Source of the DNA: Blasia pusilla
Lineage: Eukaryota
Length of the DNA: 64,000 nt
Reading direction: 5' to 3'
NCBI GenBank assembly: GCA_050084515.1
Contig: CM114271.1
Span: forward strand, 20,956,001-21,020,000
In this document: piece by piece, positions 1 to 45,600 of the stretch
How positions within the stretch are numbered: position 1 is the first letter of the stretch
How the letters are laid out: every line of letters begins with the position of its first letter
The notes under the pieces: model-generated
Database searches by the model: none
The model's input: only the letters and a program-made list of their open reading frames with translations
Told to the model about the DNA's origin: nothing
Position numbers and translations under genes: made by a program

Positions 1-737
1 TCACCAACGTAGGTAAGGCTGCCCTCAACTCCCCCACCCTATTGGTCATGGCCAACGTTGGTCTATCATCCCGTGTCACCACCTACGATCGACGCCCTGA
101 GCCCAAAATAGCATCCATTGTGAGATGTGGTGCTCTCTGGACTCCATCGTATGCTCGACTGAGTACCTCTGATGGTATCAGGTTTGTCCACCACAATCGT
201 GGATGATGAGCACGTGATCCAACTCTCGCCGCATCTAATAACACAGTAGGTCCCAACTAGGACCTCATCTGATACACATTCGTCATTACACGTGCACGAG
301 TGTCTCCCAACAATGACACGTTCTCCAAGATGTAGGTTGGAGAACATGTCTGACTCTCCTGCAAGTGTTGTACTACTCGTAGCATCTCCCAAAACATCCA
401 TGAACTCGGATCCTGCAATCCAAATCCTCAGTCAGCTGATGAATGACCCTGACATAGCCATCCAGCAATCACCAAATGAATGGTGCCAACTCTATCCAGA
501 TCCTGCGCCCCCACCAAAGAGATGTCGGCGGGTAGTGTATGCTGATATCCCCGTACTGCAGATACCGGAAACAACTCAGGGTACCTCTGGACCAATCGCG
601 CCACGTGACGTAATGATACTCGCCACGCGGTCTCATCTCTCTCCACATAAAGGTACTGATGCACCCTTATGCCCGCCTGCAATACTGCAGCCAATCCGGT
701 GCGAATCCCTCCGAAGAGATCTAACACCCTAACACCC
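1..737 (-). pseudogene. DNMT3-like methyltransferase domain of outer element (partial)
   Basis: VRVLDLFGGIRTGL, IHLVIAGWLCQGHS (PC changed to LC), YILENV (~334-317), LDAARVGSRAHHPRLWWTNL (~239-180). Confidence 0.88.
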
Positions 738-1032
738 TTCTCTGGGCACTGCCACACAACGGGTGTGGTGTCCAGTGGGGTCAACGTCTCCACTCCAAGA
801 GCCCGATCGCCACGTGACTCTCGCTGCTCCGGGATAAAAACATGACTCCACGCCTACCTCACGAGGTCGTCGGCACTCCTCTGTAGCTCTCGAGTCGTAC
901 CCCACAATGGTGAAGAGGTCTCGCCAACATGGGAAGAGACACCCGCCATGGCTTGTCTCTCCGTGGGACTATCCGCCAGGGACATCCTCCGCATGTGCGT
1001 TCCCCTCCAACAACTCTCCTGGTCCGCTAACA

Positions 1033-3308
1033 CTACCTGTGAAATCCGCCAACGTGGTCATTGACTCGCCTCGTGATCGACCACCTCGTCCCGCAAACTG
1101 CACGGGTAACTGACTCATCTAGCCGATAAGCAACGGTCTCCTCCCACAAGTCTAGGATGAATCCTAGAGGATATAACACTATACTCCCCACCAACACATC
1201 GTACGACTCAGCTGGTGTCGTAATCGCACGTGTGTGCACCATAGCACTATCCGTCGCATGCTCTGGCTGGACTCTCACAACTTTCTCCTGTCGAGTCATA
1301 TACTGCATGGGTGACACGCCCCCAATTGAGTTCCGTATCAGGAAGGGACAAGGCTCAATATCGGCCTTCCGTAACCCCAAGGCTAAACACGCCGCCTTCC
1401 CTAACATCAAGGGTTGCGCTCCCGAATCAAGTAGGACGCGCTGCAGGTGGTATATTGTCCTCGTTGGATTAACCAAGTGAAATACTCCAGCTCGGTTATC
1501 CAGTAACACTACTCCAAATGTCACCACTGCTCACTCTATGGCCGGTCAAGCTAGCATATCTACCAACTTGGCCGCCGCCGCATGCCATGACTATGTGGGG
1601 AACGTCCCGAGCACCGGCTCTGAGGGCAAGTCCACCACATCCTCAACTACCTCTGAACAAGAAGCAATCATCTCTCCACGCTCACACAACGTGGCGGCCA
1701 GCCGGAACACCTCAATTGGTCGCCAACTCTATGGCGGAAAATAGTGGAGTCTGACTCACTCTGGTGGCCACCTCCAACACTATGGTCGACACTGACTCCA
1801 CTCGAGCCGGCGTAGGAGTTGTCACTCCAACTCCTCGTGACGTCGACGTAGGTGCTTGAGCTGTAGGCACCGCTGGTTGTCGAGGCACCATCGATGGTGT
1901 GTGTAGTGCCTCGGACAATGTGAATGACTGTGGAACCCTGGCGTGCCGCCCATCCGTCCTCTCTGGTGGGTCAATCTCAACTCCACCTCTCGGTGCCTCT
2001 CGCAACACCCCGAGTCACCACTGCAGCTGCCTCAACCTCGGCTGCACTACACATAAACCCTGTACTGGTGAGATCCTCACCGGGGTCAGGGTAAGAGGTA
2101 GAAGTTGAAGTCACACTAGCTACTCGCAGCTCCGTGCCTTCCCTAAGCTGCATCATCGTCATGGCATCAATCCTCTGCTCCAACAGATCGATGCGTGAGA
2201 GAAGTGTCGGCTCTGGTGCTCCTGCTCCATCTCCTCTGGCTGGTGGTGGTCCTCTACCGCTACGTCTAGGAAGGACTCCCCGACCTCCTCCAGGATGACC
2301 GGCCCCAGGCCCTCGGCCTACCTTTGGACATGCCTCTCGGCGAAGGTCAAAACACCTATCCCTAGTGTGACCATATCTGTGGCAATAGTCACACTGGTGC
2401 TGTGGTGGGGCCATCCTCTATGGCTCCTTAGCAATCGGAGGCGCTCGTGGTCCTCTCCCATGCTGTGGATAGTCTCTCTGCCTATGGGCCCCTCCACACG
2501 TCCAACAAGACCACATCGATCCCTGTTGGGCAACATATGTAGGTACGGGTCGTTGCCTCATAGGCTCACGGTACCCGCCCTGCTCTCTGGGCACACCGGC
2601 CCGCTCTCGTGGTACTGGTGCTCGCTGTGGCACCTGTGGGGTCACCGTCGCTCGTGGACCTGTCGACTCTCGAGAAAATCCAATGGTCACTACCTGCTCC
2701 TCACTCATGTTGAGCTCAATACGCTCAGAAAACTCTAAGGCCAACTTCAATGTGGGCTTCACTGTGTGAATCAACACTGCATCTCGGACTCTCCTCCGTA
2801 GTTCTCGGTCCAGAACCCCGAACCAATACTGGACTGATTGTGTCTCAGTCACTCCATATGTAGCAATGATCAGCCTCCTCATGCGTGTGAATGCCTCTCT
2901 TAGACTCTCACCCGACCATCGCTCAAAATCCCGTAGACTCTTCAGCTTGTCGGTCCGTACGCCCTGGTAGCTCTTCCCCAACTGTCGGAAGAACTCCACA
3001 ATGGGGATGAAGCTGGGTGGCCCTCTACCACCAAAGGTCTTTGCCACATCGCCTATCTCACTGCCCTCCTCTCCATCTAGTCTCCGGGCTGATGGTGTGG
3101 GTCTCTCTCCTCTCACAATCCCATCATATGCCTCGCGACCACTAGTGGACACATACCCTAGAGTCCAATACATCCTCATGGCATCGATCTCTACCAAATA
3201 TAGTGATCAAAACTCCATGTAATCATCCATCGGAGAACCCTCCAAGTGCTGGAACAACCCCTTCCATGCCATGAAAGGGTTGAACCGTATCGGGGTCGAT
3301 ATCTCTTG
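1033..3308 (-). pseudogene. Gag (C-terminal part) and protease of outer element
   Basis: ORFs 2418-3197, 1977-2414 (CDYCHRYGHTRDRC) and 1033-1527 (VLLDSGAQ), with stops and frameshifts between them. Confidence 0.85.
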
Positions 3309-3446
3309 TGTCGTGCGCATACATATCGCTACACAACATACATCGCTGGTCACATCTACACCATACAACACCGATCTTCCCCACACACGGGTTGATCCAC
3401 ACATGTACAAAAATCAACTCATACATATACATGGAGATCACTCAAC
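3309..3446 (-). repeat. Terminal repeat A, outermost 3' copy (138 bp), ending in CA
   Basis: Direct repeat of 3928-4065. It joins B at 3446/3447 with no spacer and is followed by the TSD. Confidence 0.93.
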
Positions 3447-3925
3447 AAAAATAAAGAGTAGTAAAAACGGCACACCGGGCCTAAAACTCCACTCCTCAAT
3501 CTACATCGGCATATCGAGCCTCGTCCACCCTGTGCTATCAAGGAATCCGGACGCTAGCACCCTAGTCCTAGCTCACACACATACAAGGGAGGTGCTCCAA
3601 CGGCCCAACATGAGAAAGATGGCTTAGGAAAGCCATCTTCCTCTCTTATATAGGTTGGGAAGAGCCAAAAGGCTCAAACCCTAGAAATAGCCCTTCCCTT
3701 GATAACCTGCGCGCACAGGTTACCAGAGGCAGGTGACCTGGTCAACAAGTCACATGGCTATAAAAGACCTCAACATAAAAGTCGTCAGAAACAACGTTCC
3801 TGACGCAATGGACCTATCCTCAACCTCATCCGACACTGTGGGACAAAGTTACACTCAAGATAGTCCGCTGGCTCCTACGCCCTATCCACGATAGATCTCA
3901 GCCTATCGGTTACTCAGATGTGACA
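3447..3925 (-). repeat. Terminal repeat B, 3' copy of inner element (479 bp)
   Basis: Direct repeat of 12137-12613, sandwiched between two A repeats. Confidence 0.93.
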
Positions 3926-3927
3926 GT

Positions 3928-4065
3928 TGTCGTGCGCAAACATATCGCTACACAACATACATCGCTGGTCACATCTACACCACACAACACCGATCTTCCC
4001 CACACACGGGTCGATCCACACATGTACAAAAATCAACTCATACATATACATGGAGATCACTCAAC
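3928..4065 (-). repeat. Terminal repeat A, copy adjacent to the PPT (138 bp)
   Basis: + strand tgtcgtgcgc...gatcactcaac. Three substitutions relative to 3309-3446. Separated from B by a 2-bp spacer (3926-3927). Confidence 0.93.
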
Positions 4066-4075
4066 TGCCCCCCTA
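4066..4075 (-). other. Polypurine tract-like motif (TAGGGGGGCA)
   Basis: G-run about 70 nt after the pol stop codon, directly abutting repeat A. Confidence 0.7.
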
Positions 4076-4141: not shown

Positions 4142-4282
4142 CTATACACATCTCGGACACACCCATCGTCCCGTGGGAACCACATCAAGAGGGGGGGTCA
4201 GACATGACATATGCCACCCTCGAGAACAACCATCACATACCAACATGGTGGCTGCACCCCTCGCATATCCGCACAACATACA
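4142..4282 (-). CDS. PHD finger at the C-terminus of the integrase/pol
   Basis: CMLC-x11-CDGC-x4-HMSC-LTPPLDVVPTGRW-VCPRC, an intact C4HC3 pattern, followed by a stop codon. Confidence 0.92.
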   Translation of the reverse strand, partial: CMLCGYARGAATMLVCDGCSRGWHMSCLTPPLDVVPTGRWVCPRCV

Positions 4283-4499
4283 CCTCAAGCCTGGAGGTAC
4301 CACTGCCAAGCTTGGATCCACCGTCCCATCTACGTTCGGAAGATGACATGGCGCACAATTGCGCACATGATCCTTCCAAACCATACCATCTCGTCCCTCC
4401 AACATGAGGACTCCGGTCGGTAATACTTCGCGCACACGTAGGATAGTGCGCTCTGCAGTGACATCTAGCGTCGTGGGTGCCGCCTGCTGTAAATACACG

Positions 4500-5400
4500 T
4501 AATCTCCAGGATGAAACCTCCTAATCCCTGGAGGATAACCTCCTCCATGAATGGTCGCTACCTCAATGTATCTCTATCTCGGGCAATAGCTAAGTTCTCA
4601 AAGGCCATAGGCATAACTCTATGAAAAACTTCTGCCCTCTAAGAACATGCTTGCACCCACACATCTGGATCATCACGATCTAACACCTCCGCCATGTCAC
4701 GTCGAATCGCTGCATGTAACTCTGGCTCTCTCCCAAAGAGCAAAAAGTACGGTGAAAATGACGCCAAGGATGCTGCCGACTAAAGCGATAACCCATAGCC
4801 AACCATGGCAATCAGAGGTCCCACTCCCTCAATCGCCCCTGCTGCAAGCCATACTTGCGCAATCCTCTCTTCACCGTCTGTACCACTCTCTCCACCAATC
4901 CATCCGCCTCAGGATGATCCCTGGACGTGGTGCGGTGATCTATCGGCGCTGATCACACAAGGCCTGAAACTCTCCCTCGAACTCGGTACTGGTCGGTCAA
5001 CACCTCCGCGGTGCACCAAAGTGACTAAGCACACGATCTAGAAACGCATAAGCTTTTTCCTCGCCGCTTTGTCGGTAGTGCCACCAACTCTATCCACTTG
5101 GAGAAATGCTCCACCATGACCAACACGTACCTATGATGACGCCCTGTCAATGGCAAAGGTCCCGCAAAGTCTAAACTCCACCGATAACCTAAACCCATAA
5201 TCTCAAAAGGATGTAATTGCGGAGTGGGAGCATTGAAGGATGCTCGCACTCTGTCACATACCATACATCTGGCCACAAACTGTTGTACCCTAGTATGCAT
5301 GCCGCGCCACCAATACTGAACCTGGAGTAAGCTGTAAGTACGCTTTACTCCAAAATGTCCCAACTCCTCATCGGCATGTCGCACTACACGTGCTCGCTGG
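4500..5400 (-). pseudogene. DDE integrase (HHCC zinc-binding domain + rve core), frameshifted
   Basis: GHFGVKRTY...YWWRGM...CMVCDR, followed by RWSLDFAGPLP...YVLVMVEHFSKWIE. Confidence 0.9.
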
Positions 5401-5749
5401 GAAGGATGAGGTACCACTTGTATCCTACCATCTCCCCATACCCGCAAAATGTGAGTCCCCTCCCACCTGAACCTCTTGGCTCTCTGTAAGATCCAATCCC
5501 GCTCCCTAGCACTCATTGAACTCGCAATGACGCCAGTGCGCAAGAAGTCCACAACCTCCACGTCGTCATGGATATCACGACCACCTGTCGCCTCCTCACT
5601 AACCTCCGGATCCAAAGACTCATCATCCAACCCCACCACTCGAGTCATCACTGTGGCGACCGCCATAGTCAACCAACAAAGATAGGCGGATGCATGCCAA
5701 CCGGGCACCATCTCCTCATCACTCTCTCGTGCCATTGAGCTCGTGGACG

Positions 5750-6120
5750 TCTCTCGACTCGGACATGGGTTACGACTCGGCCCATCCGCATCCTGGTTCA
5801 GCCGACTGGGCCTATGAACCACCTCAAACTCATACTCTGTAGTAATAGAGCCCACCTGGTAAGCTTTCCATAAGCTTGTCGGACTCCATCAACCACTTCA
5901 ACGGTGATGATCGTGATAAGTGTGAAAGGGTTGCCAAATAAATAGCACCTAAAATATGCCACGGCCCCACCGCAGCCAAGCACTCTCCCTCAAGGAGTCA
6001 GATGCCGCCCTCTGCAATGTTGTTCGATCGCTCGCGTAAGCCACAACGAACTCCCTCTCCTCGTCATCCCTCCGAGTAAGCACCGCTCCTAGACCCAACA
6101 TGCTCCAACCGTATGTAATG
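5750..6120 (-). pseudogene. RNase H domain, frameshifted
   Basis: GLGAVLT...VVAYAS, AVAYFRCYLFGNPFTLIT, KLTRWALLLQ, EYEFEVVHRP...NQDADG.SR. Confidence 0.88.
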
Positions 6121-6379
6121 GAATGGGCGACCCCTAACCGGTCTCTCAAAATGGGTGAGGCGTCAACTTTGTCCTTGAGCTCTGAAATGCTCGCCTCGAT
6201 CATCTCCCCACAACCACACGATCAAGTTTTGTCAACAAGGTCAAAGAACGCACTAAAACCCTTGACATACAAGTCGATAGAAGTTCGCCATCAAGAAATG
6301 CTCGGACTGACTCACATCCAGAGGGCGTGGAATCTGCGCAGAATAGCCTCTACCTTGCCAAATCTGCTGAACGCCTAAC

Positions 6380-7050
6380 CCACTCGGGTATATGGTGTGT
6401 CCCAAGTACTCAATCTGCTCTTGAAAGAATCTGCACTTGCACGGATGTAACCGGTCCATGAAACGCAATCGCTGAAACACCTCCTCCAAGTGTCGCTCAT
6501 GCTCCTCAACCGTGGAATCAAGATAAGAATATCATCTATGTAACATCGCAAAATCTAAGCCAGCCAAAATCCTATCCATCACTGAAACTCCAGCGAGCGC
6601 GTTCTTCAACCCAAATGGTAAGAACCGCCATTGATACAAGCAATCTCTCCCGAACTGATCTATCCCCCGAGAATGTTGTCTTCTCCTGGCCTCCAACCTG
6701 ATAGGAGGCGATGATAGCCAGGACGGAGATCTAAATCTTGAAGATCTTTGCATGCCCTACGCATCAAAGATCTCCTCAGAGTAGGCATGGCATACCGATC
6801 TGACCTCGTCTGTCGGTTGATAGGACGGTAATCTCCACACATCCGCCTATCCGTCCAATTGCCATACATATCCTTCTTTGCCGGCATGACTGTGGCAGAT
6901 GCATACTCCCCATGTGACAACTCCACAAGTCCTGCCTCCAACAAGTCCTGACTCCTGCTCTGAATCAAGGCTCGCTCCATATCAGAATACCTGTAGGATC
7001 GACAAAAGATCGGCGTATCACTAGCCAACTCAATCCGTATCCCGGGACCC
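6380..7050 (-). pseudogene. Reverse transcriptase (Ty3/Gypsy type), frameshifted
   Basis: RMCGDYRPINRQT, DLRPGYH, LPFGLKNA, YIDDIL (~6543-6526), KCRFFQEQIEYLGH. Confidence 0.92.
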
Positions 7051-7500
7051 TTCAACGTACCCAAGTCTCTCATATCAAGGCAAAACAACCGACATGCCCT
7101 CTCGAGAAACCTATGAACTCACCGTCGCTCTCCTCCTATCAACTTGAGACCTATCACAGGCTCCCAAGTCTCCATCATGATCTCACTCGGAGAGGACGCA
7201 ACCTCCGGCTTTGGTTGCTATGTAGCAACCCTAGCCACCTCCGCAACAGCCACTCCACTATGACCTCCTACACCATGCTCCACATCCGAAAAATGAACAT
7301 GTGCTACTCTAGCCGCCTTCGCACTCTCTGCTCAAACGACGTCCCAAGAAGTCCATGGGTGCCTATCTCTCCTCATCTTGCCTGACCAATGCCTGTGACA
7401 GACCTCAGAGGCGTGGTCCAACTCGTGGACGTGGCGGCATGGATGACACTCGCATCCATCTCGCTTCGAGCCATACCTAGGTGACTATCCATGTGAGACA

Positions 7501-8408
7501 GTTGAGGTCCATCGCCCCTAACACTGTCTCCGTGATGCCTCAGTCATCCCTGGCACCGCCGTAGTACCGGTAGTGAACCCCATGGCGCGCTCACGCTCAT
7601 ATGCTGTAGGCTCCTCCAATGCGCCGGTCACCTCATCCCAAATCATGCGTGGCCCTCCATGACGAAAAGCATGGGATGCTGGGAAGCTCACCAACGTAGG
7701 TAAGGCTGCCCTCAACTCCCCCACCCTATTGGTCATGGCCAACGGTGGTCTATCATCGCGTGTCACCACTTGAGATCGACGCCCGAGTCCAAAATAGCAT
7801 CCACCGTGAGATGTGGTGCTCGACTCCATCATGCTTGACTCAGTACCTCGATGGTATCAGGTTTGTCCACCACGATCGTGGGACGATGGGCACGTGACCC
7901 AACTCGCTGCATCTAACAACACGGTCCCGGTCCCAACCAGGACTCACCGATGTACACTCGTCATCACATGTGCACAGTATCTCCCAACAACGGCACGTTC
8001 TCCAAAATGTAGGTTGGAGAACATATCCGACTCTCTGCAAGTGTCGTACTACTCGCAAACATCTCCCAAAACATCCACGACCTCGATCGTGCAATCCAAA
8101 TCCTCGGCCGGTTGATGAATGACCGACATGGCCATCCAAAGCAATCACCAAATGAATGGTGCCAACTCTATCAGATCGTGCGCCCCACCAAAGATATGTC
8201 GGCGGGTAGCGTATGCTGGTATCCCCGTACTGCAGATACCGACAACAACTCAGGATACCTCTGGACCAATCTCGCCACGTGATGTAATGATACTCGCCGC
8301 GCGGTCTCATCTCTCTCCACATAAAGGTACTGATGCACCCGTATGCCCCCCTGCAATACTGCAGCCAATCCGGTGCTAATCCCTCCAAAGAGATCTAACA
8401 CCCTAACA
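7501..8408 (-). pseudogene. C5 cytosine DNA methyltransferase domain (DNMT3-like) within pol of inner element, frameshifted
   Basis: Motifs occur in canonical order: I VRVLDLFGGISTG; II YVERD; IV GWPC (PC at 8131-8126); VI YILENV (~8011-7994); VIII-like DAA..G..AHRP..WWTNL; IX ERERAMGF; X RRQ.LG.AMD. Confidence 0.88.
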
Positions 8409-8829
8409 CCCTCCTCTAGGCACTGCCACACAACAGGTGTGGTATCTAGTGGGGTCATCGTCTCCACTCCAAGAGCCCGATCGCCATGTGACTCTCGCTG
8501 CTCTGGGATAAAAACATGACTCCACGCCTGCCTCACGAGGTCGTCGGCACTCCTCTGTAGCTCTCGAGTCGTACCCCATAATGGTGAAGAGGCATTGCTA
8601 ACATGGGAAGAGACACCCGCCATGGCCTGTCTCTCCGTGGGACTATCCGCTACTGGGACATCCTCCGCATGTGCGTTCCCCTCCAACAACTCTCCTGGCC
8701 AGCTAACACTACCTATGAAAGTCGCCAACGTGGTCATAGACTCGCCTCGTGATCGACCATCTCGTCCCGCTAACTGCACGGGTAACTGACTCATCCGACC
8801 GTCACCTGACCGCCATCCTGGCCGATAAG

Positions 8830-9150
8830 CAACGGTCTCCTCCCAGAAGTCAAGGATACATCCTAGGGGATATAACACTATACTCCCCACCAACACATCG
8901 TACGACTCAGCTGATGTCGTAATCGCACGTGAACGCACCATAGCACTATCCGTCGCATGCTTTGGCTGGACTCTCACAACAATCTCCTGTCGAGTCATAT
9001 ACTGAGTGGGTGATACGCCCCCAATCGAGGTCTGTATCGGAAGGGACAAGGCTCAATGTCGGCCTTCCGTAGCCCCAACGCTAAACACGCCGCCTTCCCT
9101 AACATCAAGGGTTGCGCTCCCGAATCAAGTAGGACGCGCTGCGGGTAGTA
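8830..9150 (-). pseudogene. Retropepsin-like aspartic protease domain of inner element
   Basis: RVLLDSGAQPLMLG (D-S-G active site) and downstream YDVLVG motif. One frameshift near 9045. Confidence 0.85.
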
Positions 9151-9949
9151 AACTATCCCCGTCGGACTAACCAAGCAAAATACTCCAGCTCGGTTATCAG
9201 TAACACTACTCCAAATGTCACCACTGCTCACTCTATGGCCGGTCGAGCTAGCATATCTACCAACTTGGCCGCCGCCGCATGCCATGACTCTGTGGGGAAC
9301 GTCCCGAGCACCGGCTCTGAGGGCAAGTCCACCACATCCTCAACTACCTCTGAACAAGAAGCAATCATCTCTCCACGCTCACACAACGTGGCGGCCAGCC
9401 GGAACACCTCAATTGGTCCAACTTCCAACGTCGCCAACTCTATGGCGGAAAATAGTGGAGTCTGACTCACTCTGGTGGCCACCTCCAACACTATGGTCGA
9501 CATTGACTCCACTCGAGCCGGCGTAGGAGTTGTCACTCCAACTCCTCGTGACGTCGACGTAGGTGCTTGAGCTGTAGGCACCGCTGGTTGTCGAGGCACC
9601 ATCGATGGTGTGTGTAGTGCCTCGGACAATGTGAATGACTGTGGAACCCTGGCGTGCCGCCCATCCGCCTCTCTCTGGTGGGTCAATCTCAACTCCACCT
9701 CTCGGTGCCTCTCGCAACACCCCGAGTCACCACTGCAGCTGCCTCAACCTCGGCTGCACTACACATAAACCCTGTACTGGTGAGATCCTCACCGGGGTCA
9801 GGGTAAGAGGTAGAAGTTGAAGTCACACTAGCTGCTCGCAGCTCCGTGCCTTCCCTAAGCTGCATCATCGTCATGGCAGCAATCCTCTGCTCCAACTGAT
9901 CGATGCGTGAGAGAAGAGCCGGCTCTGGTGCTCCTGCTCCATCTCCTCT

Positions 9950-11250
9950 GGCTGGTGGTGGTCCTCTACCACCACGTCTAGGAAGAACTCCCCGACCTCC
10001 TCCAAGACGACCGCCCCCAGGCCCTCGGCCTACCTCTGGACGTGCCCCTCGGCGAAGGTCAAAACATCTATCCCTAGTGTGACCATATCTGTGGCAATGG
10101 TCACACTGGTGTTGTGGTGGGGCCATCCTCTGTGGCTCTTGCGCAATCGGAGGCGCTGGTGGTCCTCTCCCATGCTGTGGATAGTCTCTCTGCCTATGGG
10201 CCCCTCCACACGTCCAACAAGACCACATCGGTCCGTGTTGGGCAACATATGTAGGTGCGGGTGGTTGCCTCATAGGCTCACGGTACCCGCCCTGGTCTCT
10301 AGGCACACTGGCCCGCTCCCGTGGTACTGGTGCTCGCTGTGGCACCGGTGGGGTCACCGCCGCTCGTGGACCCGTCGACTCTCGTGAAAATCCAGCGGTC
10401 ACTACCTGCTCCTCACTCATACGCTCAGACAACTCAAAGACCACCTTCAATGTGGGCTTCGCTGTGTGAATCAGCACCGCATCTCGGACTCTCCTCCGTA
10501 GTTCTCGGTCCGAACCAGACCAATCTTTGGACTAAGCTGCGCCTCGTCACTCCAACGTAGCAATGATCAGCCTCCTCATGCGTGTGAAGGCCTCTCTCGA
10601 CTCTCACCCGATCGTCGCTGAAAATCCTCAGAGACTCTTCAACTTGTCGGTGCGTACACCCTGGTAGCTCTTCCCCAACCGTCGGAAGAACTTCACCTTT
10701 GTGGGGTGTCAAGCAGGTGGACCTCTACCACCAGAGGTCTCGCCACATCGCTGTGTCCTTTGTCCTCCTCTCTATCTAGTCTCCGGGCTGATGGTGTGGG
10801 TCTCTCTCCTCTCACAATCCTAATCATATGCCTCGCGACCACTAGTGGACACATACCCGGAGCCCAAAACATCCTCCAGGCATCGATCTCTTTGAATATA
10901 GTGATCAAAACTCCATGTAGTCATCCATCGGAGGACCCTCCAAATCTTTGGAACAACCCCTTCCATGCCATGAAAGGGTTGAACCGTGTCGGGTTCAGAT
11001 ATCTCTGGAAGTCGCACCATGTGTCGAACTCCTGGATGAAATCATCTAAGTCGATGGTGCCCATCGCACCGAGAAACGACGCATGCCCCGATGGCCCATG
11101 TCGCCCATCTCCCGCCAAGTACTATGTCTCTCTCATTTCACGATCTCGTCACCAGACCGGTGTCTAGTGATGACGATCGATCCACGGATGGATGTCGAGG
11201 TAGCTCCTAATTGGTAACCCCTCGATATCTCACTCCACTCCGTGTCACAC
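9950..11250 (-). pseudogene. gag: Gag of inner element (frameshifted) with two zinc knuckles
   Basis: Fragments IDLDDFIQEFDTWCDFQ, CWTCGGAHRQRDY (degenerate knuckle) and CDHCHRYGHTRDRC (CCHC), spread over several frames. Boundaries approximate. Confidence 0.8.
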
Positions 11251-12123
11251 CACTACCACTGCTCGCACTGCCCCGTTCTTCCGAACCCTGGAAGAACGCC
11301 GTGATGACAAACCCTGTCTCACCCACTCAAGCACTCAGACTCACCGAAAGTCTCCCACACGCCTCACTAGCTCACCTATGCTAACATCAATCCCATGATG
11401 ACATACCCGCCTCACGACGCTCAACACTCGGGCTCACCATGAGCCTCCCAACCGACTCACCTAACCTAGCGACACACTCTCGGGTCATACACGCGACCCT
11501 ACTTCGGCAACCGTCGTATATCCACCAACATGCTACACATGAAAAGAATCTACACTCGTCACCATCTAGCACCAGCTACTACCCGATACCCAACACTCTC
11601 AATCACACACGACAAGTGCGAGAAAAGGGACTCGAATGGGTAACCTGATCACGCCCTCCAACCTCCTGCACCGTCAATATGCACTCCTCCACATGATATG
11701 ACAATCTCCGCCACATAACACTCCCCTCGACCAACACGCCGATCCTCCCACAATCAACAGATCACGGACAACCCGTCGGCATCATGCACACTGCCCCTCC
11801 ATCGTAAACTCTCGCAACGCCCTATGCGCGCCTCACAAACAACATGTCATGCAAACCCCTCTGTCCAACTTGTCGATCACTCAACACGTCGACATCCTCC
11901 CTGCCCTCACGTTGACCATGCGCACCGCGTTCGCCGGACCGACCTCGTCCGTCCTACCACGTTCGCTACGACTGTCCGACCGCCGTCGGTGCTACCACGT
12001 CGGAGAGGGGGAAAGAAATTGGACCGCGGCCCTATGCGGGCCCCTTGGGCCCTAAATGCGGGGGAACGCTTTAGCAACTCGCTTGCCTACCTGCAAACAA
12101 CGAATTCCCACCAGCCCCTTGAC

Positions 12124-12136
12124 ATCTTTCTCATGT
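12124..12136 (-). other. Putative self-priming primer-binding site (ACATGAGAAAGAT)
   Basis: Lies immediately inside repeat B, lacks the TGG of tRNA-primed PBSs, and is the exact reverse complement of 12298-12310. The same site is present at 13836-13848. Confidence 0.75.
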
Positions 12137-12613
12137 AAAAATAAAGAGTAGTAAAAACGGCACACCCGGCCTAAAACTCCACTCCTCAATCTACATCGGC
12201 ATATCGAGCCTCGTCCACCTTGTGCTATCAAGGAATCCGGACGCTAGCACCCTAGTCCTAGCTCACACACATACAAGGGAGGTGCTCCAACGGCCCAACA
12301 TGAGAAAGATGGCTTAGGAAAGCCATCTTCCTCTCTTATATAGGTTGGGAAGAGCCAAAAGGCTCAAACCCTAGAAATAGCCCTTCCTTGGTAACTGCGC
12401 AAGACAGGTTACCAAAGGCAGTGACCTGGTCAACAAGTCACCCGGCTGTAAAAGACCTCAACATGAAAGTCGTCAGAAACAACGTTCCTGATGCAATGGA
12501 CCTATCCTTAACCTCATCCGACACTGTGGGACAAAGTTACACTCAAGATAGTCCGTTGGCTCCTACGCCCTATCCACGATAGATCTCAGCCTATCGGTTA
12601 CTCAGATGTGACA
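12137..12613 (-). repeat. Terminal repeat B, 5' end of inner element (477 bp; contains TATA and predicted TSS)
   Basis: Near-identical to 3447-3925 (roughly 15-20 differences counted by eye) and similar to 13849-14327. Starts TGTCAC on the minus strand. Confidence 0.93.
12310..12342 (-). promoter_or_regulatory. LTR promoter: TATATAA box and predicted transcription start (C|A)
   Basis: Minus-strand TATATAA at 12342-12336, with a YR initiator 32 nt downstream (12310). Conserved in all three B copies. Confidence 0.65.
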
Positions 12614-13848
12614 CCTGGAAGTTGCACCATGTGTCAAACTCCTGGATAAAATCATCTAAGTTGATGGTGCCCACTGCACCCGAGAAACGACGCATGCCTT
12701 GATGGCCCATGTCGTCCATCTCTTGCCAAGTACTACTGTCTCTGTCTGCGATCTCGTCACCAGACCCAATGTCTAGTGATGACGATCTAGCCACGGATGG
12801 ATGTCGAGGTAGCTCCTCACTGGTAACCCCTCGGTATCTCACTCCACTCCGTGTCACACCACTACCACTACTAGCACTACCCCGCTCTTCCGAACCCTGG
12901 AAGAACGCCGTGATGACAAACCCTGTCTCACCCGCTCAAGCACTCAGACTCACGAAGAGTCTCCCACACTCCTCACTAGCTCACCTATGCTAATGTCAAT
13001 CCCGTGATGACACATCCGGCCTCACGCATACTCAACACTCGGGCTCACCACGAGCCTCCCAACTGACTCACCTAACCTAGCGACACTCTCAGTTCATACA
13101 TGCGACCCCTACGCGGCAACCGCCGTATATCCACCAACATGCTACATATGAACAGAATCTACACTCGTCACCATCGCTGCACCCACCTAGCACCAGCTAC
13201 TACCCGATACCCAACACTCTCAATCACACATGACAAGTGTGGGAAAAGGGACTCGAATGGGTAACCTGATCACAGCCTCCAACCTGCTGCTCCGTCAACA
13301 TGCATTCCCCCATGGGACACGGCAACCTCTACAACACAACACTCTCCTAGACCAACACGTCGATCCTCCCGTCAACAGATGCGGACAACCCGTCGGCATC
13401 ATACGCACTGACCCTCCATCTAAACTCTAAAAAACTTAGTACAAGCCCGCTCAACCACGTAGCGCTCATAACCATGTAAGTAGTTCCACCCGGATAGCCT
13501 GGTCACCACATCCTGAACCCTACCACATTGCCATCCAACCACGTTGATGGGGGGGGCGGCGGCGCACCGTCGCCGTCCGCCCATGCGACCTAAACGCCTG
13601 CTCTTTCTTGACAATCTCGCTGATAAACTCGCTGCCCCACTCTGTACTACACTGTGCCACTGTCCTCAATCCCTGTGCACCACCAAATTCTGAGAAAAAT
13701 GGACAGCGCTTCCGCCCACGGCCTTCTGACCAGAAAAATGAAAAACACCCACAACACACGCGTCTCCAAGGGCTCCCGACCAAGGCAACTTGCTTGCCTA
13801 CTTGCAAACAACGAATTCCCACCAGCCCCCTTGGCATCTTTCTCATGT

Positions 13849-14327
13849 AAAAATAAATAGTAGTAAAAATGGCACACCCGCCCTAAAACTCCACTCCTCA
13901 ATCTACATCGGCATATCGAGCTTCGTCCACCCTGTGCTATCAAGGAATCCGGACGCTAGCACCCTAGTCCTATCTCACACACATACAAGAGAGGTGCTCC
14001 AATGGCCCAACTTGAGAAAGATGGCTTAGGAAAGCCACCTTACTCTCTTATATAGGGTTGAGAAGAGCCAAAAGGCTCTTCCCTAAAAATAGCCCTCCCT
14101 TTGGTAACCTGCGCGCATAGGTTATCAGGGGCGGGTGATCTGGTCAACAAGTCACCCGGCTGTGAAAGACCTCAACATGAGAGTTGTGAGAAACGACGTT
14201 CGTGACACAATGGACCTATCCTCAACCTCATCCGACACCGTGGGACAAAGTTACACTCAAGATAGTCCGCTCGCTCCTACGCCCTATCCACGATAGATCT
14301 CGGCCTATCGGCTACTCAGATGTGACA
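13849..14327 (-). repeat. Terminal repeat B, 5' end of outer element (479 bp)
   Basis: Diverged direct repeat of 12137-12613 with the same boundaries. It is followed by the same PBS-like site (13836-13848) and likewise has no A segment. Confidence 0.9.
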
Positions 14328-14332
14328 GGCTT

Positions 14333-14927
14333 TGTGAGTAGTAGAGGATAGGCTGAGTAGGTCGAGGATGACCCGTTGAGGCCCCTGGAAACCTGAGAGA
14401 GCAGGTTTCCCCTTCGTTTCGGCTCATTTGGAGCCATATTGAAGAACTTAATATTCTAGGTAATTACCATTTTGAGTATATGATCGACTTTCTATTTTTG
14501 GTTAGTGGCCCTTGACCTCCTACATCAGGTCAAGAGTCAAGGAGGTGACTTGGGAGAATAGGTTACCATGGTGAGAGCTTGAGAGAGGGGAGGGGTATAC
14601 CTCAAGGAGAGAGAGCTTGAAAGCTCATTGTCTCTTTGTTGAACCTCTTGGCATGAGGCGACGGAGCTATGGTTCCTTGCCTTGTGAGTGTAACCCAAGC
14701 CTCTCATTAGGAGAGTGGGTTTGGTTTGACATGAGAGAGAGTGCACAACTTTGAGAGCTATGGTGTGAGATGGTGTAGAGAGAGATTGGATCTTACTTTA
14801 TTGGAGATATTTTGGTACTTCTTGCGTCTGTGTATGCATGCCATGAGTTAGCATGGGATACTGTGTGTTTGTGTGTGTGTTCGATGACAGCGATGTATAT
14901 TGTGTAGCGATGTTTATGCGCACGACA
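14333..14927 (+). mobile_element. Solo-LTR-like remnant of a related retroelement family
   Basis: Starts TG and shares gataggctgag with the start of B. Its last ~43 bp (tgacagcgatgtatattgtgtagcgatgtttatgcgcacgaca) match the end of repeat A, ending in CA. No TSD found, so the left boundary is uncertain. Confidence 0.6.
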
Positions 14928-15182
14928 AGTGGTTTCGATCCCCCATAATTCGAAAAATTACCAAACCATAAGATCAAATATCTCTTAATATTCTTCTAGT
15001 TCCTACATACTAGAATTCAATGGTTGATGGATTAATTTTGGAAATTTTACGTCTCGGGACACTACAATAACTATAAATCCATATGATTTTTGTTCAATCC
15101 TAGATTCCTTCAATAATTCATCAAAATGCAAGAAGATACACTTTATGGACTTGTGTTTGAGGTTCTTCCTTAGATAATAAAG

Positions 15183-15186
<4 letters not shown>

Positions 15187-15218
<32 letters not shown>

Positions 15219-15231
15219 TATAGATATATAT
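15187..15231. repeat. (TA)n microsatellite
   Basis: Visible TA run with a few GA interruptions. Confidence 0.9.
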
Positions 15232-31059: not shown

Positions 31060-31580
31060 AGACGGAGATCATCTCATCTCTGGATGCGCGCAAATCTGAA
31101 AAATATGAAGGAGTGAAGCATCTCAAGTCGGAATGCGTGCAAATCTAAAGTGCATAGAGATCTCATGTCTGAACGCGTGCATTTTGGATGTCGGATTTCT
31201 AAAGTGCATAGAGGACGTCTCATGTCTGAGTGTGTGGAATTGGAGGCCGGATTTCTGAACTGCAGGGAGGACATGTCACGTCTGAATGTGTGCAAGTGGA
31301 GGTCGGACTTCTAAAATGCATAGAGGGCATTTCATGTCTGAATGTGTGGAATTAGAGGTCAGATTCCTGAAATGTAGAGAGATCTTCTCGTCTCTTGATG
31401 CGGGGAATCGGTGGAGGTGGCACTTCTGAAATGCACGGAGGAGATCGTCTCATGTGTAAATGCGCGCAATCGGTGGAGGTGGGACATTTGAAATTTACAA
31501 AGGAGCGTCTCATATCTGAGTGCGTGCAATCGGTGGAGTTCGGATGTAGGAAATGCGAAGGAGATCATCTCAAGTCTTTA
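31060..31580. repeat. Degenerate minisatellite, ~55-65 bp unit, about 8-9 copies
   Basis: Recurring (t)ctcatgtctga(a/g)tg(c/t)gtg...ggaggtcggatttctgaa(a)tgca(t)agagg units. Confidence 0.7.
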
Positions 31581-32301: not shown

Positions 32302-32511
32302 TTGAGATTTAGGATTAGTTAGATTATTAGTGACGGGTAAGTTTACTAATTAATTTACATTTTTTGTGCATCGTACAAACCTCCACTAGTGACATTTATA
32401 ACGATTGAGATTTAGGATTAGTTAGATTATTAGTGACGGGTAAGTTTACTAATTAATTTACATTTTTTGTCCATCGTACAAACCTCCACTAGTGACATTT
32501 ATAACGATTGA
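32302..32511. repeat. 103-bp tandem duplication (2 copies)
   Basis: ttgagatttaggattag... starts at both 32302 and 32405; one mismatch seen. Confidence 0.92.
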
Positions 32512-39600: not shown

Positions 39601-42600
39601 TGAGAAGACAATATCTGTTGTTGATATACCAATCTGTGGGTACCGGCACTTCGCCCTGAACGGTATGCACTGTTGATAATCCTGCAGACACGAACCAAAA
39701 GTCCAAATCCTTTTTTCTTGAGTACTATTGCAACTACCGACTCATATGGGTGGAAATGGAAGCTGACTTATACGGAGGACGATACTATTACGCTAGTTCA
39801 AAAGGTCTACACAAAGAGGTGATATGGTGTTGATTGGCGACTTTAGTGGAAAACAGAATCGGAGCAACCTTTGACCTGCTCGTAGAAATTACGAACGAAT
39901 TAGATCGTGTCCAAGTATCTCGCCATTTTCTTCCCACTCTCCACCAGAATATGAAAGGATATCTACATGAACAAAGAATCGGACCTACATAACAGAAATA
40001 GTTTCTTCACCAGGCAATAGCAATCTTTGTTTGAGCCCTGACTTACAGATAGTCTGGTTTAAGAGATGTTGATAATTCGGTCCTATGGGGTGTTTGTCAT
40101 GGTGTTCTTTCACCTGGGACAAAGATTTCTGGAAGAAACCAGCTAAAATATGAAATTCTACACAGCTAATGAATTCATGTTGGTATATCACTAGAAAAGC
40201 GCACACACCTTAATAAGACGACAATTGACAAATATATTTGCTGACATCTCATCGCAAGTGTCTTCTGTAATGGGCCTTTTCTTTGCAGGGCCTGGGCAAA
40301 AGTGAATCCAAATGCGTAGACTGCAACGCAAATAAAGTATGATGAATAGACAGTAATCAAAGCGGCTTGCCGATCTTAGTGTGGAATAGAAGTAAAGTGC
40401 TATCACTCATCTTTTTTGATGGCCATTATTTGAGGTTGAAATCTACTAACCAGAGGTGCGCAACTTATTATAGACAGTCTGCTACAATGAGACTCACCTG
40501 CTCTTAGCTCCAAGCGTAATAGAACTGAAACGCTTCAAAGACGTATTCGCAAGGGAGAAGTTGAGCTCTGTTGATTCATTGTGGTCCAAGCTGGAAGATA
40601 GAAGAAACTCCATGGCAACTGGAGCCTCGTTCACCACTGCAAATGAACGATTTCGATACCAGAAGTTGTAATAGACCTCTCCCATGTCTATGATCTTCAC
40701 CTCTGACCTGGCAAGTTGTAATGGAATCATCAAACAGAATACTCAAGTCAGCACCATCTTCCTTGCATGGCACATATGATGTTGGGCTTCTTACATCATG
40801 CATAGAAGTTTCAAGATGCTGAACGCACACAAAACCTGAACGAATCTCATCAAACCGACATTACACATGCTGCATCAGTAAAATTCATCGGCAGATCCAT
40901 CAATTGCTTACATACCTGTCACCTTGCACAAGGACGTGAAAAAATGTCAGAGATGGTGCCTCCGGGCGGGCATTGCGGGGAGCTACCACTTCCAGGCTGA
41001 GATGGACAGTTTTCAAATCAGCTGGATTCTCCAGGTTTTCCACCACCAAGTACGTAGAATACACACCTGCCAAGGAGAATGAATGAATGAATGAATATTA
41101 GCTCCAAAAGCTTAACAAACAGGACAAATTACACCACAAACACATGTTTAAGTCACAATTGCAGTAGTTGGACAGATGAGAAGCCTTGGTTCACCGGCTG
41201 GTTCCCTCCATAGTTACATGCAGACTTGTATTCTAATGTCATTTTTCTGTTGCATCAACTTTGTTTGGATTCCTTCGATGGAGTGATCACTAACTTCAGA
41301 GGCTACAAACCTGTGTATTTAACGAGGAGAAGCTCTTCAACATCGTTGAATCCATTATTATGATCATTTACTTCATCACATATCTTCTCATAATTGATCT
41401 ACTTCTCTGGTATTGGTCTTTGTAATATTTATCGATGTTGTATTAAATACACTGTTTGTAAATAACTCTGCTCATTCTCTACGGGTGCAATCAGATGTTA
41501 GAAGACTGGCAACCTCTCTTGGTGACTCGCACATACTCAGCCTCACAGAGAATCAACAGGAGCGATTAATGTATCTCACCCATTGCTTTCGTGGAAAACG
41601 AAAGTTGTACTATTTTCTGCTGTGCTGCCTCCACAAGTCCACTTGGACTGCTTATGCTTAGCCAGCTCGCATCTCCTCCAGTAATGGTGCACAACCGATA
41701 ATGTATTGGCCACGCTTTGTCTCCCACAAGAGTCAAGTCCCAATTCAGATGTCCTCCTGATGAAATGTTTTGTTGGCCAAGATTAAACTCGTAACAAAGG
41801 AGACTGCCCCCCACTGGAGTGCAACCCCGCAGTCCAAGAACAAGGGGGAACCCTTGCCCTGCTCGGGAAGCTTCCTTCACAACCTTTTCATCAAATGACA
41901 GTTCCCTGAACCGAACCTCGGATGATTTTTTACCACCTTCTAATGTAAGCTCCTGACTCTTTGCAGGAGGTCGGATTCTGACAACTATGCGCTCAGAACT
42001 CCTATCAGGCTTCTGACTTTCAACATCATGGACAACTAGTATGATAGCCAAAGGTTCAGGGTCAAGATCATCTCCTCCTGAAGCCCCTAGGACACTGTCA
42101 TACACATCTCTAGACCAAGGTCGTGATTTGACGAGAATTTCAACACTTCCATGAGGTGGAATTGAGCCCTCCAAAGGCTGTACAACAACATAATCAAAAG
42201 GAAGTTTTGCCTGAGGATCTTGATGGAGGCCACTTGGAAGTACAGAGAATTGCAGCGACTGAAATGCTCTAAAGTTCCTGATCACAACAATTTGTGACGA
42301 TCCTACTAAGTCATGTCTGCCCTCCCATCCTATAGTCAATTTGTTAGCGTGTTCTGTGTCGTCTGGGTTTCCTGTTCTAGGTCGGATCTCCTCGTCTGCC
42401 ATTCGCGCCTGCGATGAACTTCTAGTGTCACCAAAAAGCAAGAAAAAAGTAGAATTGAAAAAGCAGAGACTGAGCTAATCTCAATAATTTTTCCAGTGGT
42501 TGTAATTGCTGTTTCAGCTTCCAAAAAAGCAAGATGACTGCACAGAAGTTCCTAATTTGAAACACCGACGACACGGAACTAAACTTCGAGAATGACTGAA

Positions 42601-45600
42601 CAAAAATCTTAGTCTATATTCATATAGCTGGGATACCGAGTCACCGACCTGAAGATGAAGAGTACGAGGAGATACATCGAAGGGTGAACCTTGTAAGAGT
42701 GCTCCATGGATAGGAATGCAATCCGGTAAATGTGGAGATGAAAACAGGTACAACTGTCCCATGCAAACTGTATTTGCAATCTCAGAACCCCCATGTGATA
42801 TGTGATCTGCGTCCAGATCTGGATACATACGCCCGTTTGCGAGTCCAATCTCTTGGCAATTGATACCTGCCTCATCGATATCCTTCACTATGTCAGGCAC
42901 GATTTTATCCGAACACTTGATGTTTATTGCATCTTCACTCCCTACACGAGAAGGTCTCCTGTATGTCACATGCTGCACGAGAAAGTGGGAGGGTAAATTG
43001 TCAGAAATAGGACGTGCACATATACGCAGCTCAGTTTTTTCCCCTGGCTCTAAAGTCAGCTCCCCAATAGTTGTATTTGTCGGTGACACGACCTCCAACA
43101 TAACCTGCAGTCATAGCAGTATTGGAATTTAGTCATTGATTAAGAATAGGTGAGGGTGAGTTTTAGCTGTTGAATTTAACAGTCAAATTTTTCATGCAGA
43201 TGTCACTTTAGCTCTACTGCTCCAGTTCTAAGTTCAGGTATTAAATTCTTTTAGTTAGATCTAATTTAAGTAGCTCTAATGTGTTGTGCTGCTTTGTTGT
43301 GCTGTCAAATCCACCAGATGCTTTATTATGATGTGCTATCCACTACACCTACTGTTCTGCTGTACTACTCTGTTGTGCTGTCCTTCCTGATTCATGCTCA
43401 TGGTTTGATGTGGTGTTCATCCTTATCCCATGCGTACTTCCTTCATAGTCTCATCCCTCTACATAAGAGCCCCAAACCCTATAGGATTCCCGTGGACAGT
43501 AACTCACGTCATTCATTCATCCATTCTGTCCCCAGCCTCATTCTCCTCCATCGTATCTTGAGATCGAGATTGGTTCATGCACATCTGACTTGCTAGTGTC
43601 TGGGTTAACCAAGAAGGAAATGTGAAGCTGTACTGCTAAATACTCCTGTCATTGCCTTTGTGTTCTCTAATAAGTTGTTGCTTCAACTTGGAGCAAACAA
43701 TTTGAAAGAGGAGTTCCATAACAGCCCTGTATTCAATCCGTTGTATTCTCTTTCACATGTGAGCAAACTGATTTTATAGATGCACGTTTGCTAATTACTG
43801 GAAGATTCTGTCGAGATCTAATTCCTTTTTTGATTTTGAATTCTTGAAAGTTACATCTGAGAGGAACTGAGTATTGATTTCAACATTCAGGACAGGAACA
43901 CTGTCACACAGAGTTGATGGTCAAGTACTATATACCAATGACTCTGTTTCTTCAGCTTGCTGCAGTTGTAGAGCCACACCCAATGGCTCCAGAGACAAAT
44001 TCTCCACCTGTTGTGGGCATGCAAACACGAACGGTCACTCTTTCATACATGTCCATAACTGTTGATTTATTTCCCCTCAGTTTGAAGGTGAACAAGCCAA
44101 AGAAATAGCCAATCCATCTTTTCATAGTTCATTGAAGTGCACACATACCACAAACTGCGTGATGCAGGGTGGAGCGTTCGGTAGAGGAGGTAATGTAAGA
44201 GGTGGTAACAACAATGTAGACTCTGTCAAGCCCCCCAAGCGAAGAGTGCACACAGTTAATTCCGCTTCGACTACTAGCTCCATCAGGTTGTTGGGATTGT
44301 TGCAATTACGCAGACAAATCTGCCATGTGCAAAGTCCAGCTTCCTTCACATGTTCCAGCTTTGAAGTACATAGAGTGATGCTCAATGTCCTGGAACTCCT
44401 GGCAGGCACATAGCTTCTCTTTTCATTCTCTTGAAATCCCTTGTGCAGCTCCTTCGTGGATATTGAGAAGAATTCTGGAACATCGACTAGCTGATAAACT
44501 AGAATTGCGTCACTAGTATTCTCCACAGTAATCTCAAACTCAACATCCGCCCACCTGTTTGCATATCCAACCTTACCCAGTTCTACATGACGCTTTGCAA
44601 GCTTCCCTCTTGAAACACAGATTGAAGCCATGATATTTAACACTTCCACAGTGTCATGAGCAATATTGACCTGATCAGATGGGTGTGTGGCAAGTAAAAT
44701 GTCTTTACTTCTTCCTGTAGAAGAACTCTGTACTTTTACAAATGTCAGCAATCCTTCAATTTTAGACAATTTACCAGCACTAAGACGATCAATATCTGAC
44801 ACCCACAATCGACCAAGATCCAAGAAAGATACGAAGATTCTGGTTATAGAAAAAGGCTCCACGACAAATCCTCCTCCACAAGGTGCAAGGTTGGTGACGA
44901 GCTCAGACAAATCTCCTCTGATCAACTCCTCATATACCTTGTCCCCAAACTGAGACTTATTATATGCCTCCACAACCTCAATCCCTCCAAGTGTTTCATC
45001 ACGTACTGTAGACATAGCAATCTGAGAGACGTTGGCAGAGTATTCCTCTTTTCTCCCTACTTCATATGCGGCACTGAGGTTGTTCTGTGTATCTACAAGC
45101 ACTGGTAGGTTACTGAAAGGCTGCAAATAAATGCGCTCTTGCAAATGATTTCTGATGACCAGTGAAGAGTGATAAGGACGAAGGTCAGAGATTGAATAAT
45201 CAGAAACCTCTAAGCTCTCCAAAGTAGAGGAGCCAGCTGATATTGTTCGTTTGTGGACTGGTGAGATAAAAACGGTTCCCAGGTCAAGAACAGAATTTGG
45301 TTCCAGCAGCACACCATCTTCACACCCAAAACCTCCGAACCTCTTCACCTGCCTGTCAGTCAATCCATCCGTTTTGCCGAATGATCTGGTCAAACTTGCA
45401 CAAAAGAAATCTCCAGCAGACAGTGTCTTCCGAATTTGTCTACTAACCGCCTGTTCGATTCCTGCTTCATTTGTAGGTGATAATGGTAGAACATGAACAC
45501 TACTTTCTAAATTAGTACTTATTTTTCCGTTCGTAAGCCTAGATTTTTCTGCTGGATGAGAATCTAGACCCGGGAGGGTAAAGGTACTATCTTGCTTGTA

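Follow-up and report, generated by a model that had tools for sequence, protein, structure and literature searches.

Introduction

How does a retrotransposon begin reverse transcription when the sequence directly following its 5' terminal repeat does not open like the binding site of a tRNA? The question is raised by a degenerate Ty3/gypsy element of the liverwort Blasia pusilla, found in a 64,000-nucleotide stretch of contig CM114271.1 (assembly GCA_050084515.1, positions 20,956,001 to 21,020,000 of the forward strand), which we refer to as the window and whose numbering is used throughout. The element, designated E1, occupies 12613-3309 on the minus strand (9.3 kb) and is nested within an older copy of its own family, designated E0. 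Our observations suggest that E1 probably starts reverse transcription from its own RNA: as judged from the sequence and from a predicted transcription start site (TSS), self-priming is the best reading of a primer-binding site (PBS) that complements the predicted 5' end of the element's transcript. The locus gives a concrete priming site to a family whose repeat layout had been noted but not explained.

A putative priming site at the edge of the terminal repeat

The 5' terminal repeat of E1, termed B2 (12137..12613, minus strand; 477 nt, beginning with TGTCAC), comprises the promoter and the R region, ends with ...CTCTTTATTTTT at 12137, and is followed without any gap by the 14-mer ACATGAGAAAGATG (12136-12123), the putative PBS. 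The 3' copy of this repeat, termed B3 (3447..3925, minus), is 96.5% identical to B2, and the homology between the two stops exactly at 12137/3447, that is, at the edge of the 14-mer, the point from which minus-strand DNA must hence begin. The first base copied in any retroelement is the one preceding the PBS; taken together with the end of homology at 12137/3447, this places the beginning of the PBS at 12136, whatever the primer might be. The sequence past the repeat begins with ACATGAG, and the nearest TGG is 24 nt off. As it opens with ACA and not with TGG, a CCA-ended tRNA is excluded as the primer at this site.

The element itself supplies a partner for this 14-mer. The stretch at 12136-12123 is the perfect reverse complement of 12311-12298 within B2 (CATCTTTCTCATGT on the minus strand); in the letters of the forward strand, the two arms read CATCTTTCTCATGT (12123-12136) and ACATGAGAAAGATG (12298-12311), are 14 nt long and 100% complementary, and have 161 nt between them. 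The same 14-mer as the B2 arm recurs in B3 at 3608-3621. The B2 arm starts at 12311, 31 nt past the first T of the sole TATATAA in the repeat (12336..12342, minus), and the ATCTTT... starting at 12310 lies 32 nt past it. The usual distance from the TATA box to the TSS in plants is 31-32 nt, and the arm accordingly lies where the first 13-14 nt of the transcript are predicted, making it a putative self-primer. The older copy, E0, retains the identical 14-mer as its own putative PBS (13835..13848, minus), which pairs at 13 of 14 positions (93% complementary, one mismatch) with the corresponding self-primer arm (CATCTTTCTCAAGT, 14010..14023, minus). The sole partner that we found for the putative PBS is, therefore, the element's own RNA at the very place where a TATA-driven transcript is expected to begin. 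The Tf1 primer consists of the first 11 nt of its mRNA, as against a duplex of 13-14 nt in E1.

An original prediction, made from the letters of the window alone, had claimed the perfect complement directly after the repeat, its spacing from TATATAA, and the same pairing with one mismatch in the outer copy, and all three are reproduced here. It had further stated that no TGG-type PBS is present; this stands for the repeat boundary but not for its surroundings, as a TGGTGGG does occur 24 nt further on (12113-12107).

The significance of the complement was assessed as the length of the perfect complement anchored at the first post-repeat base, using dinucleotide-preserving shuffles of the 477-nt B2 (n=5000). 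A complement of at least 12 nt was seen in 0/5000 shuffles, the maximum being 11 nt (2/5000), whereas the observed length is 14 nt. Because no anchored shuffle reached 12 nt, chance complementarity is excluded. The analytic expectation of a 14-nt anchored complement is ~1.7e-6. In the window as a whole, the 14-mer with at most two mismatches has six matches versus 1.03 expected, a count reached by none of 100 shuffles; five of these six are the three arms in the B repeats and the two sites following B, and the sixth (1278-1291, with two mismatches) is unrelated. The E1 site also falls within the published in silico definition of a plant self-primer, namely a complement of at least 10 bp located 0-5 bp past the 5' long terminal repeat (LTR) (Neumann 2019).

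Structure around the predicted start site and the case against self-priming

In minimum free energy folds of the RNA beginning at 12311, the first 14 nt pair with the PBS in both E1 and E0, with a stem-loop lying just inside this duplex. A strong hairpin is also present between the TATA box and the predicted TSS (12302..12333, minus), with 14-nt arms paired at 13 of 14 positions and a 4-nt loop. It occurs in all three copies of the B repeat (12333-12302, 3643-3612 and 14045-14014), with a folding energy of -22.4 kcal/mol (z -5.6) in B3 and a z of -4.7 in B1, the 5' terminal repeat of E0. A diverged solo repeat adjoining E0, which is described below, has a hairpin of different spelling at the same place (~14603-14638; z -2.6). 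The self-primer overlaps the 3' arm of this hairpin, and the 5' arm is similar to the PBS (10/12 positions, by eye). In the RNA, the hairpin may mask the primer sequence in its 3' copy or form a switch.

Several of our observations weigh against self-priming. First, the primer arm also belongs, as its 3' arm, to a strong local hairpin and so has another reason to be conserved; such a role, nevertheless, leaves unexplained the exact placement of the complement at the priming position. Second, folds of the whole R region are no better than those of shuffled sequences (z -1.39 and -0.39), leaving the 14-bp duplex alone as structural support, and for this reason we give those folds little weight. 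Third, in a comparison that has only the two PBS-bearing copies, E0 and E1, to draw on, there is no compensatory change: the PBS is identical in both and the sole difference breaks a pair. Fourth, the TSS is only predicted, from its position past TATATAA. Fifth, both E0 and E1 are decayed, and it is a presumption that these copies ever transposed in their present form. Finally, the window offers no host tRNA to set against the PBS, as ARAGORN finds zero tRNA genes in it.

Other explanations of the complementary arms

The alternative that survives best, though we regard it as distinctly unlikely, is that the 14-bp duplex forms a leader stem that has some other role, such as packaging, dimerization, translation control or masking of the PBS, and that a different primer is used at the same spot. 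Retroviral leaders do have stems between U5 and the leader around the PBS, and the involvement of the R arm in a second, very stable hairpin would be in keeping with a structural switch. Moreover, the primer of split-repeat retroelements is generally not established, according to the introduction of the DIRS-1 paper. Against this stand the positions of the two arms, the 3' arm being exactly where a primer must anneal and the 5' arm at the predicted 5' end of the RNA, and the fact that we found no other candidate primer.

A second alternative is a host small RNA, for instance an internal fragment or a half of a tRNA, priming at 12136-12123, with the match to the LTR being secondary. We consider this improbable. 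A CTCAT in the complement of the PBS might be taken for part of a CAU anticodon loop; the would-be anticodon stem, however, is A/U-rich, unlike those of Met tRNAs. An Rfam scan of 11900-12700 gave three weak matches, all with E of at least 0.94 and none of them tRNA-like. Half-tRNA primers are recorded for ~2% of plant elements (Neumann 2019), but their use here would leave a perfect 14-nt match at 31 nt past the TATA box of the same LTR as a coincidence, with the expectation of ~1.7e-6 given above.

Slightly less probable still is that the PBS-like 14-mer arose by duplication of the promoter hairpin's 5' arm (GAGGAAGATGGC vs GAGAAAGATGTC, 10/12 alike), which would make its complementarity to R a by-product without a part in priming. 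The motif does exist in three related versions, at 12333-12320, at 12136-12123 and, in the complementary sense, at 12315-12302. This notwithstanding, the PBS is the better match of the two for the R arm (14/14, as against 13/14 for the hairpin arm), and in both copies of the element the duplicate would have had to come down precisely on the repeat boundary.

A conventional tRNA-type site might be seen in TGGTGGGAATTCG, 24 nt past the repeat in E1 (12113-12101), which starts with TGG. This stretch is kept in both copies at 24-25 nt past the repeat (12113-12101 in E1 and 13824-13812 in E0, minus) and resembles the start of a tRNA-type PBS, but it is too distant from the repeat end. We hold priming from it to be very improbable: the 24 intervening nt would be copied into U5 and should follow B3, where they are absent, and the published window for a PBS is 0-5 nt past the repeat (Neumann 2019). 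Chance, in favor of which nothing could be counted, has a negligible probability in view of both sets of shuffles (0/5000 for a complement of at least 12 nt and 0/100 for the observed window count).

The split repeats of E1 and its insertion into E0

Self-comparison of the window found three copies of the ~480-nt repeat B. Besides B2 and B3, these include B1 (13849..14328, minus), a repeat of the 480-nt class that is 91.7% identical to B3. A second, shorter repeat of 138 nt (GTTGAG...CGACA) is present in E1 as an internal copy, a (3928..4065, minus), and as a terminal copy, a' (3309..3446, minus), which also ends with CGACA, is 97.8% identical to a, and abuts the last base of B3 (the B3/a' joint at 3447/3446). 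An AC dinucleotide (3926..3927, minus) separates a, which ends with GACA, from B3, which starts with TGTC, and the junction so formed is palindrome-like; directly upstream of a is a polypurine-like tract, AGGGGGGCA (4066..4074, minus), as read from the sequence. The order on the minus strand is thus B1-PBS-leader, then B2-PBS-leader-gag...PHD-AGGGGGGCA-a-AC-B3-a', and then the continuation of E0 (3306-1). In short, E1 has the layout B-coding-a-AC-B-a with the termini TGTC...GACA, and its internal junction, GACA-AC-TGTC, is composed of both integrated termini plus the dinucleotide.

E1 is inserted at a single point within E0 (14328-12614 and 3308-1). Around it is a degenerate 5-bp duplication, CCAGG (12618-12614) and CAAGA (3308-3304), versus CCAGA in E1's own uninterrupted copy. 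The continuation of E0 past the insertion (1..3306, minus) is 90.8% identical to 7688-11006 of E1 and runs off the window, and E0 is ~9% diverged. Two simpler accounts of the layout were considered. A canonical LTR, with a+B or B+a at both ends, was rejected, as both B1 and B2 start at TGTCAC and are followed by the 14-mer and not by a; three different sequences precede the TGTCAC starts. An origin by simple tandem duplication or rearrangement was rejected on account of the single-point insertion of E1 with its degenerate 5-bp duplication, and also because the layout has been described for KnitGypsy-Dnmt3, an element of the alga Klebsormidium nitens. A 9-nt stretch, AGATGTGAC, in each copy of a (3976-3968 and 3357-3349) complements the first bases of B (GTCACATCT, 3924-3916), a match at about the chance level for 800 nt.

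The solo repeat mentioned above belongs to a related family and lies in the opposite orientation (14334..14928, plus), head-to-head with E0, with 5 bp (GGCTT) between the two. In it, B' and a form one contiguous unit (TGTGAG...CGACA), which aligns with B and a in its first ~30 nt and its final ~45 nt only and lacks an internal region. Such a unit is the expected remnant of recombination between the two B copies of an element of this kind. The complement of its predicted primer arm is found nowhere else in the window (four matches with at most three mismatches versus 3.06 expected, the sole exact one being the arm itself).

A possible route from self-primed cDNA to a permuted insertion

Self-priming, combined with the repeat layout, lends itself to the following scheme. 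Transcription would start ~31 nt past the TATA box, at 12311/12310, and the first 13-14 nt of the RNA would fold back across the 161-nt R region onto the 14-mer following B. The element's RNase H might then cut after the paired stretch, at nt 13-14, and the freed 3' OH would be extended from 12137 to 12297, yielding a minus-strand strong-stop DNA of ~161 nt, which would transfer to the copy of R in B3. Plus-strand synthesis is predicted to start after the polypurine-like tract at 4074-4066, and, because of this, the LTR as synthesized would be a-AC-B. The resulting linear cDNA would have a-AC-B LTRs at its ends, beginning with GTTGAG... and ending with ...TATTTTT. In the simplest account of what follows, which we hold with rather low confidence, these ends would be joined, either by ligation or by end-to-end template switching, to make a B/a joint, and the opening of the circle or concatemer by the integrase at the palindromic GACA-AC-TGTC junction would give a circularly permuted insertion (B...a-AC-B-a). 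Retroviral integrases can cut LTR-LTR junctions.

The observed B3/a' joint (3447/3446) coincides with what this scheme predicts: it unites the predicted start of the minus strand with the first base past the polypurine tract, is blunt, and has no base lost or added. Hence, the joint points independently to this priming site. The cDNA end at TATTTTT put forward in the original prediction, and matched there to the B/a joint, is the one that this scheme predicts. Together, the priming site and the polypurine tract predict the B/a joint of the integrated copy to the base, making the rebuilding of the ends of a split-repeat retroelement a testable model.

We offer the generalization of this scheme as a speculative one, in which we place rather low confidence: that a lineage of integrase-encoding Gypsy elements in liverworts and Klebsormidium makes a self-primed linear cDNA with a-AC-B LTRs, joins its ends, and, upon opening by the integrase, inserts it in permuted form. 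If true, permuted integration would explain split direct repeats of the DIRS-like type without a tyrosine recombinase, and the end-joined cDNA would be an obligatory integration intermediate and not a dead end.

Coding content and evolutionary affinities of E1

The degenerate coding region of E1 (4145..11121, minus) specifies, in order, gag with CCHC knuckles, a protease, a DNA methyltransferase (DNMT)-like region, reverse transcriptase (RT), RNase H, an integrase and a PHD finger. The two CCHC knuckles of gag (10531-9692) and the DSG motif of the protease were recognized by eye in minus-strand frames. RT and RNase H fragments were recovered in the E1 frames by the RVT_1 (E 2.3e-4) and RT_RNaseH_2 (E 9.8e-5) models, and the integrase by Integrase_H2C2 (E 1.1e-14) together with rve. 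On the C-terminal side of the integrase is a PHD finger (PF00628, E 5e-11; 4573-4145, minus), at the position held by the chromodomain in chromoviruses; no chromodomain match was found in the translated E1 frames. No tyrosine recombinase domain was found in the 16+18+21 translated frames scanned; what E1 has is an integrase of the DDE type (H2C2 plus rve). The frames of E1 are interrupted by many stops and frameshifts, and this copy is consequently dead. In the gag region, a stretch of 57-70 nt (2887-2956; 10584-10639) is 79-81% identical to 60369-60438, far from the element.

Among 1664 candidate proteins, 47 were homologous to the integrase frame at the threshold of E <=1e-5. They come from the liverworts Calypogeia fissa, Riccia sorocarpa and Marchantia polymorpha, from Sphagnum, from K. 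nitens and from others. PF00628 is present in 29 of the 47, and the C5 DNA methylase domain PF00145 in four, one of which is a K. nitens protein with the order DNMT, RT, RNase H, integrase; a K. nitens protein combining RT, RNase H, DNMT and integrase is 40% identical to the integrase of the window (E 1.1e-44). An intact relative (P0007) matches the Ty3 Gag-Pol structure 7q5b with an E of 4.1e-101. E1 is a degenerate Ty3/gypsy element and a liverwort relative of KnitGypsy-Dnmt3.

As to the methyltransferase, DLFGG and ENVP motifs are visible by eye in the region between the protease and RT (9052-7900, minus), and the open reading frame at 9052-8174 shares 55% identity with a Marchantia protein over residues 543-830 of the latter, whose PF00145 match begins at 839. 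As the window frames themselves give no match to PF00145, the DNMT of E1 can only be inferred; it is probably a decayed one. If confirmed, the region would represent a land-plant example of a DNA methyltransferase carried by a retrotransposon.

Comparison with known systems

Self-priming has been shown for Tf1 and inferred for Tj1 and other Tf1/Sushi elements, as stated in the Tj1 paper. In the fission-yeast Ty3/gypsy chromoviruses Tf1, Tf2 and Tj1, priming without a tRNA relies on a PBS that directly follows the 5' LTR and complements the 5' terminus of the element's own mRNA, and in E1, likewise, the complementary arm lies within the same LTR. Unlike these elements, E1 has a PHD finger in place of the chromodomain, a DNMT-like region in pol, and split repeats (B...a-B-a) where they have a pair of identical LTRs. 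Accordingly, the label 'Tf1-like self-priming' attached to E1 in the original prediction is apt, in silico, for the mechanism but not for the element itself, whose PHD finger and split, non-identical terminal repeats set it apart. By the two features tested, the replacement of the chromodomain by a PHD finger and the split repeats, E1 is not a Tf1/Sushi member; were phylogenetic kinship with that group excluded as well, self-priming would have had an independent origin in a Gypsy lineage devoid of a chromodomain.

In plants, self-priming has been predicted for 12% of the LTR retrotransposons surveyed, comprising the Tcn1 clade, which are chromoviruses of mosses and clubmosses, and the TAR lineage of Ty1/copia (Houba, Osr-1) (Neumann 2019). 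These share with E1 the same signature, 10 bp or more of complementarity to the 5' LTR from 0-5 bp past it, and one of the two groups is found, like E1, in non-seed plants. They differ from it in having ordinary LTRs and a chromodomain or copia architecture. For SM-Tcn1, an earlier paper had reported no site for either a tRNA or self-priming, and Skipper has no complementary region in its LTR. The main text of Neumann 2019 makes no mention of liverworts, Marchantia or Klebsormidium. In view of this survey, the mechanism has less novelty than the original prediction implied. Self-priming itself is not new; what is new is its context, in a split-repeat, integrase-encoding lineage, and the account that it provides of the B/a joint.

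A close parallel to E1 is KnitGypsy-Dnmt3, which combines Gypsy domains with an integrase (de Mendoza et al. 2018). Its repeat structure is described as 'the same as that of a DIRS retrotransposon' (de Mendoza et al. 2018, Figure 4c legend), and the A-coding-B-A-B layout is called typical of DIRS elements in the legend to Figure 1 of the same work. As far as these figure legends permit comparison, E1 shares the DIRS-like A-coding-B-A-B repeats of KnitGypsy-Dnmt3. The DNMT of the latter lies in pol upstream of RT, whereas the corresponding region of E1 is only DNMT-like and has no Pfam match; further, the host of E1 is a liverwort and the E1 copy is decayed. In the main text of de Mendoza et al. 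2018, the word 'primer' occurs once, in the context of PCR, and the priming of KnitGypsy-Dnmt3 is not discussed. The layout of E1 also corresponds to the A1-coding-B1-A2-B2 arrangement of the split-direct-repeat elements of the DIRS order (PAT-like, Ngaro, VIPER), which use a tyrosine recombinase, unlike E1 with its DDE integrase. The priming site proposed here thus concerns a layout whose primer is not known even in DIRS-1, going by the introduction of the DIRS-1 paper. A search of the open-access literature for DIRS self-priming, for liverwort PBSs, and for Marchantia elements with DNMT, integrase and PHD domains found nothing on priming in the family of E1.

Other features of the window

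Beyond the element, the window contains host genes encoding YjeF_N and DnaJ proteins and a giant HYDIN/CFAP-like gene. Exons of the latter, a HYDIN/CFAP65/CFAP74-like flagellar gene, extend over 41566-56348 on the minus strand, and its best homologs, as well as all of its full-length ones (~3700 aa), are from liverworts, with 51-59% identity. From its sequence, the flagellar giant gene places the host among the liverworts with motile sperm. The host part of the window also has two short tandem duplications, at 31144-31538 and 32302-32511, with 76% identity over ~340 nt and 99% over 107 nt, respectively. A (TA)n/(TATAGA)n microsatellite is present at 15186-15230, in AT-rich host DNA adjoining the element.

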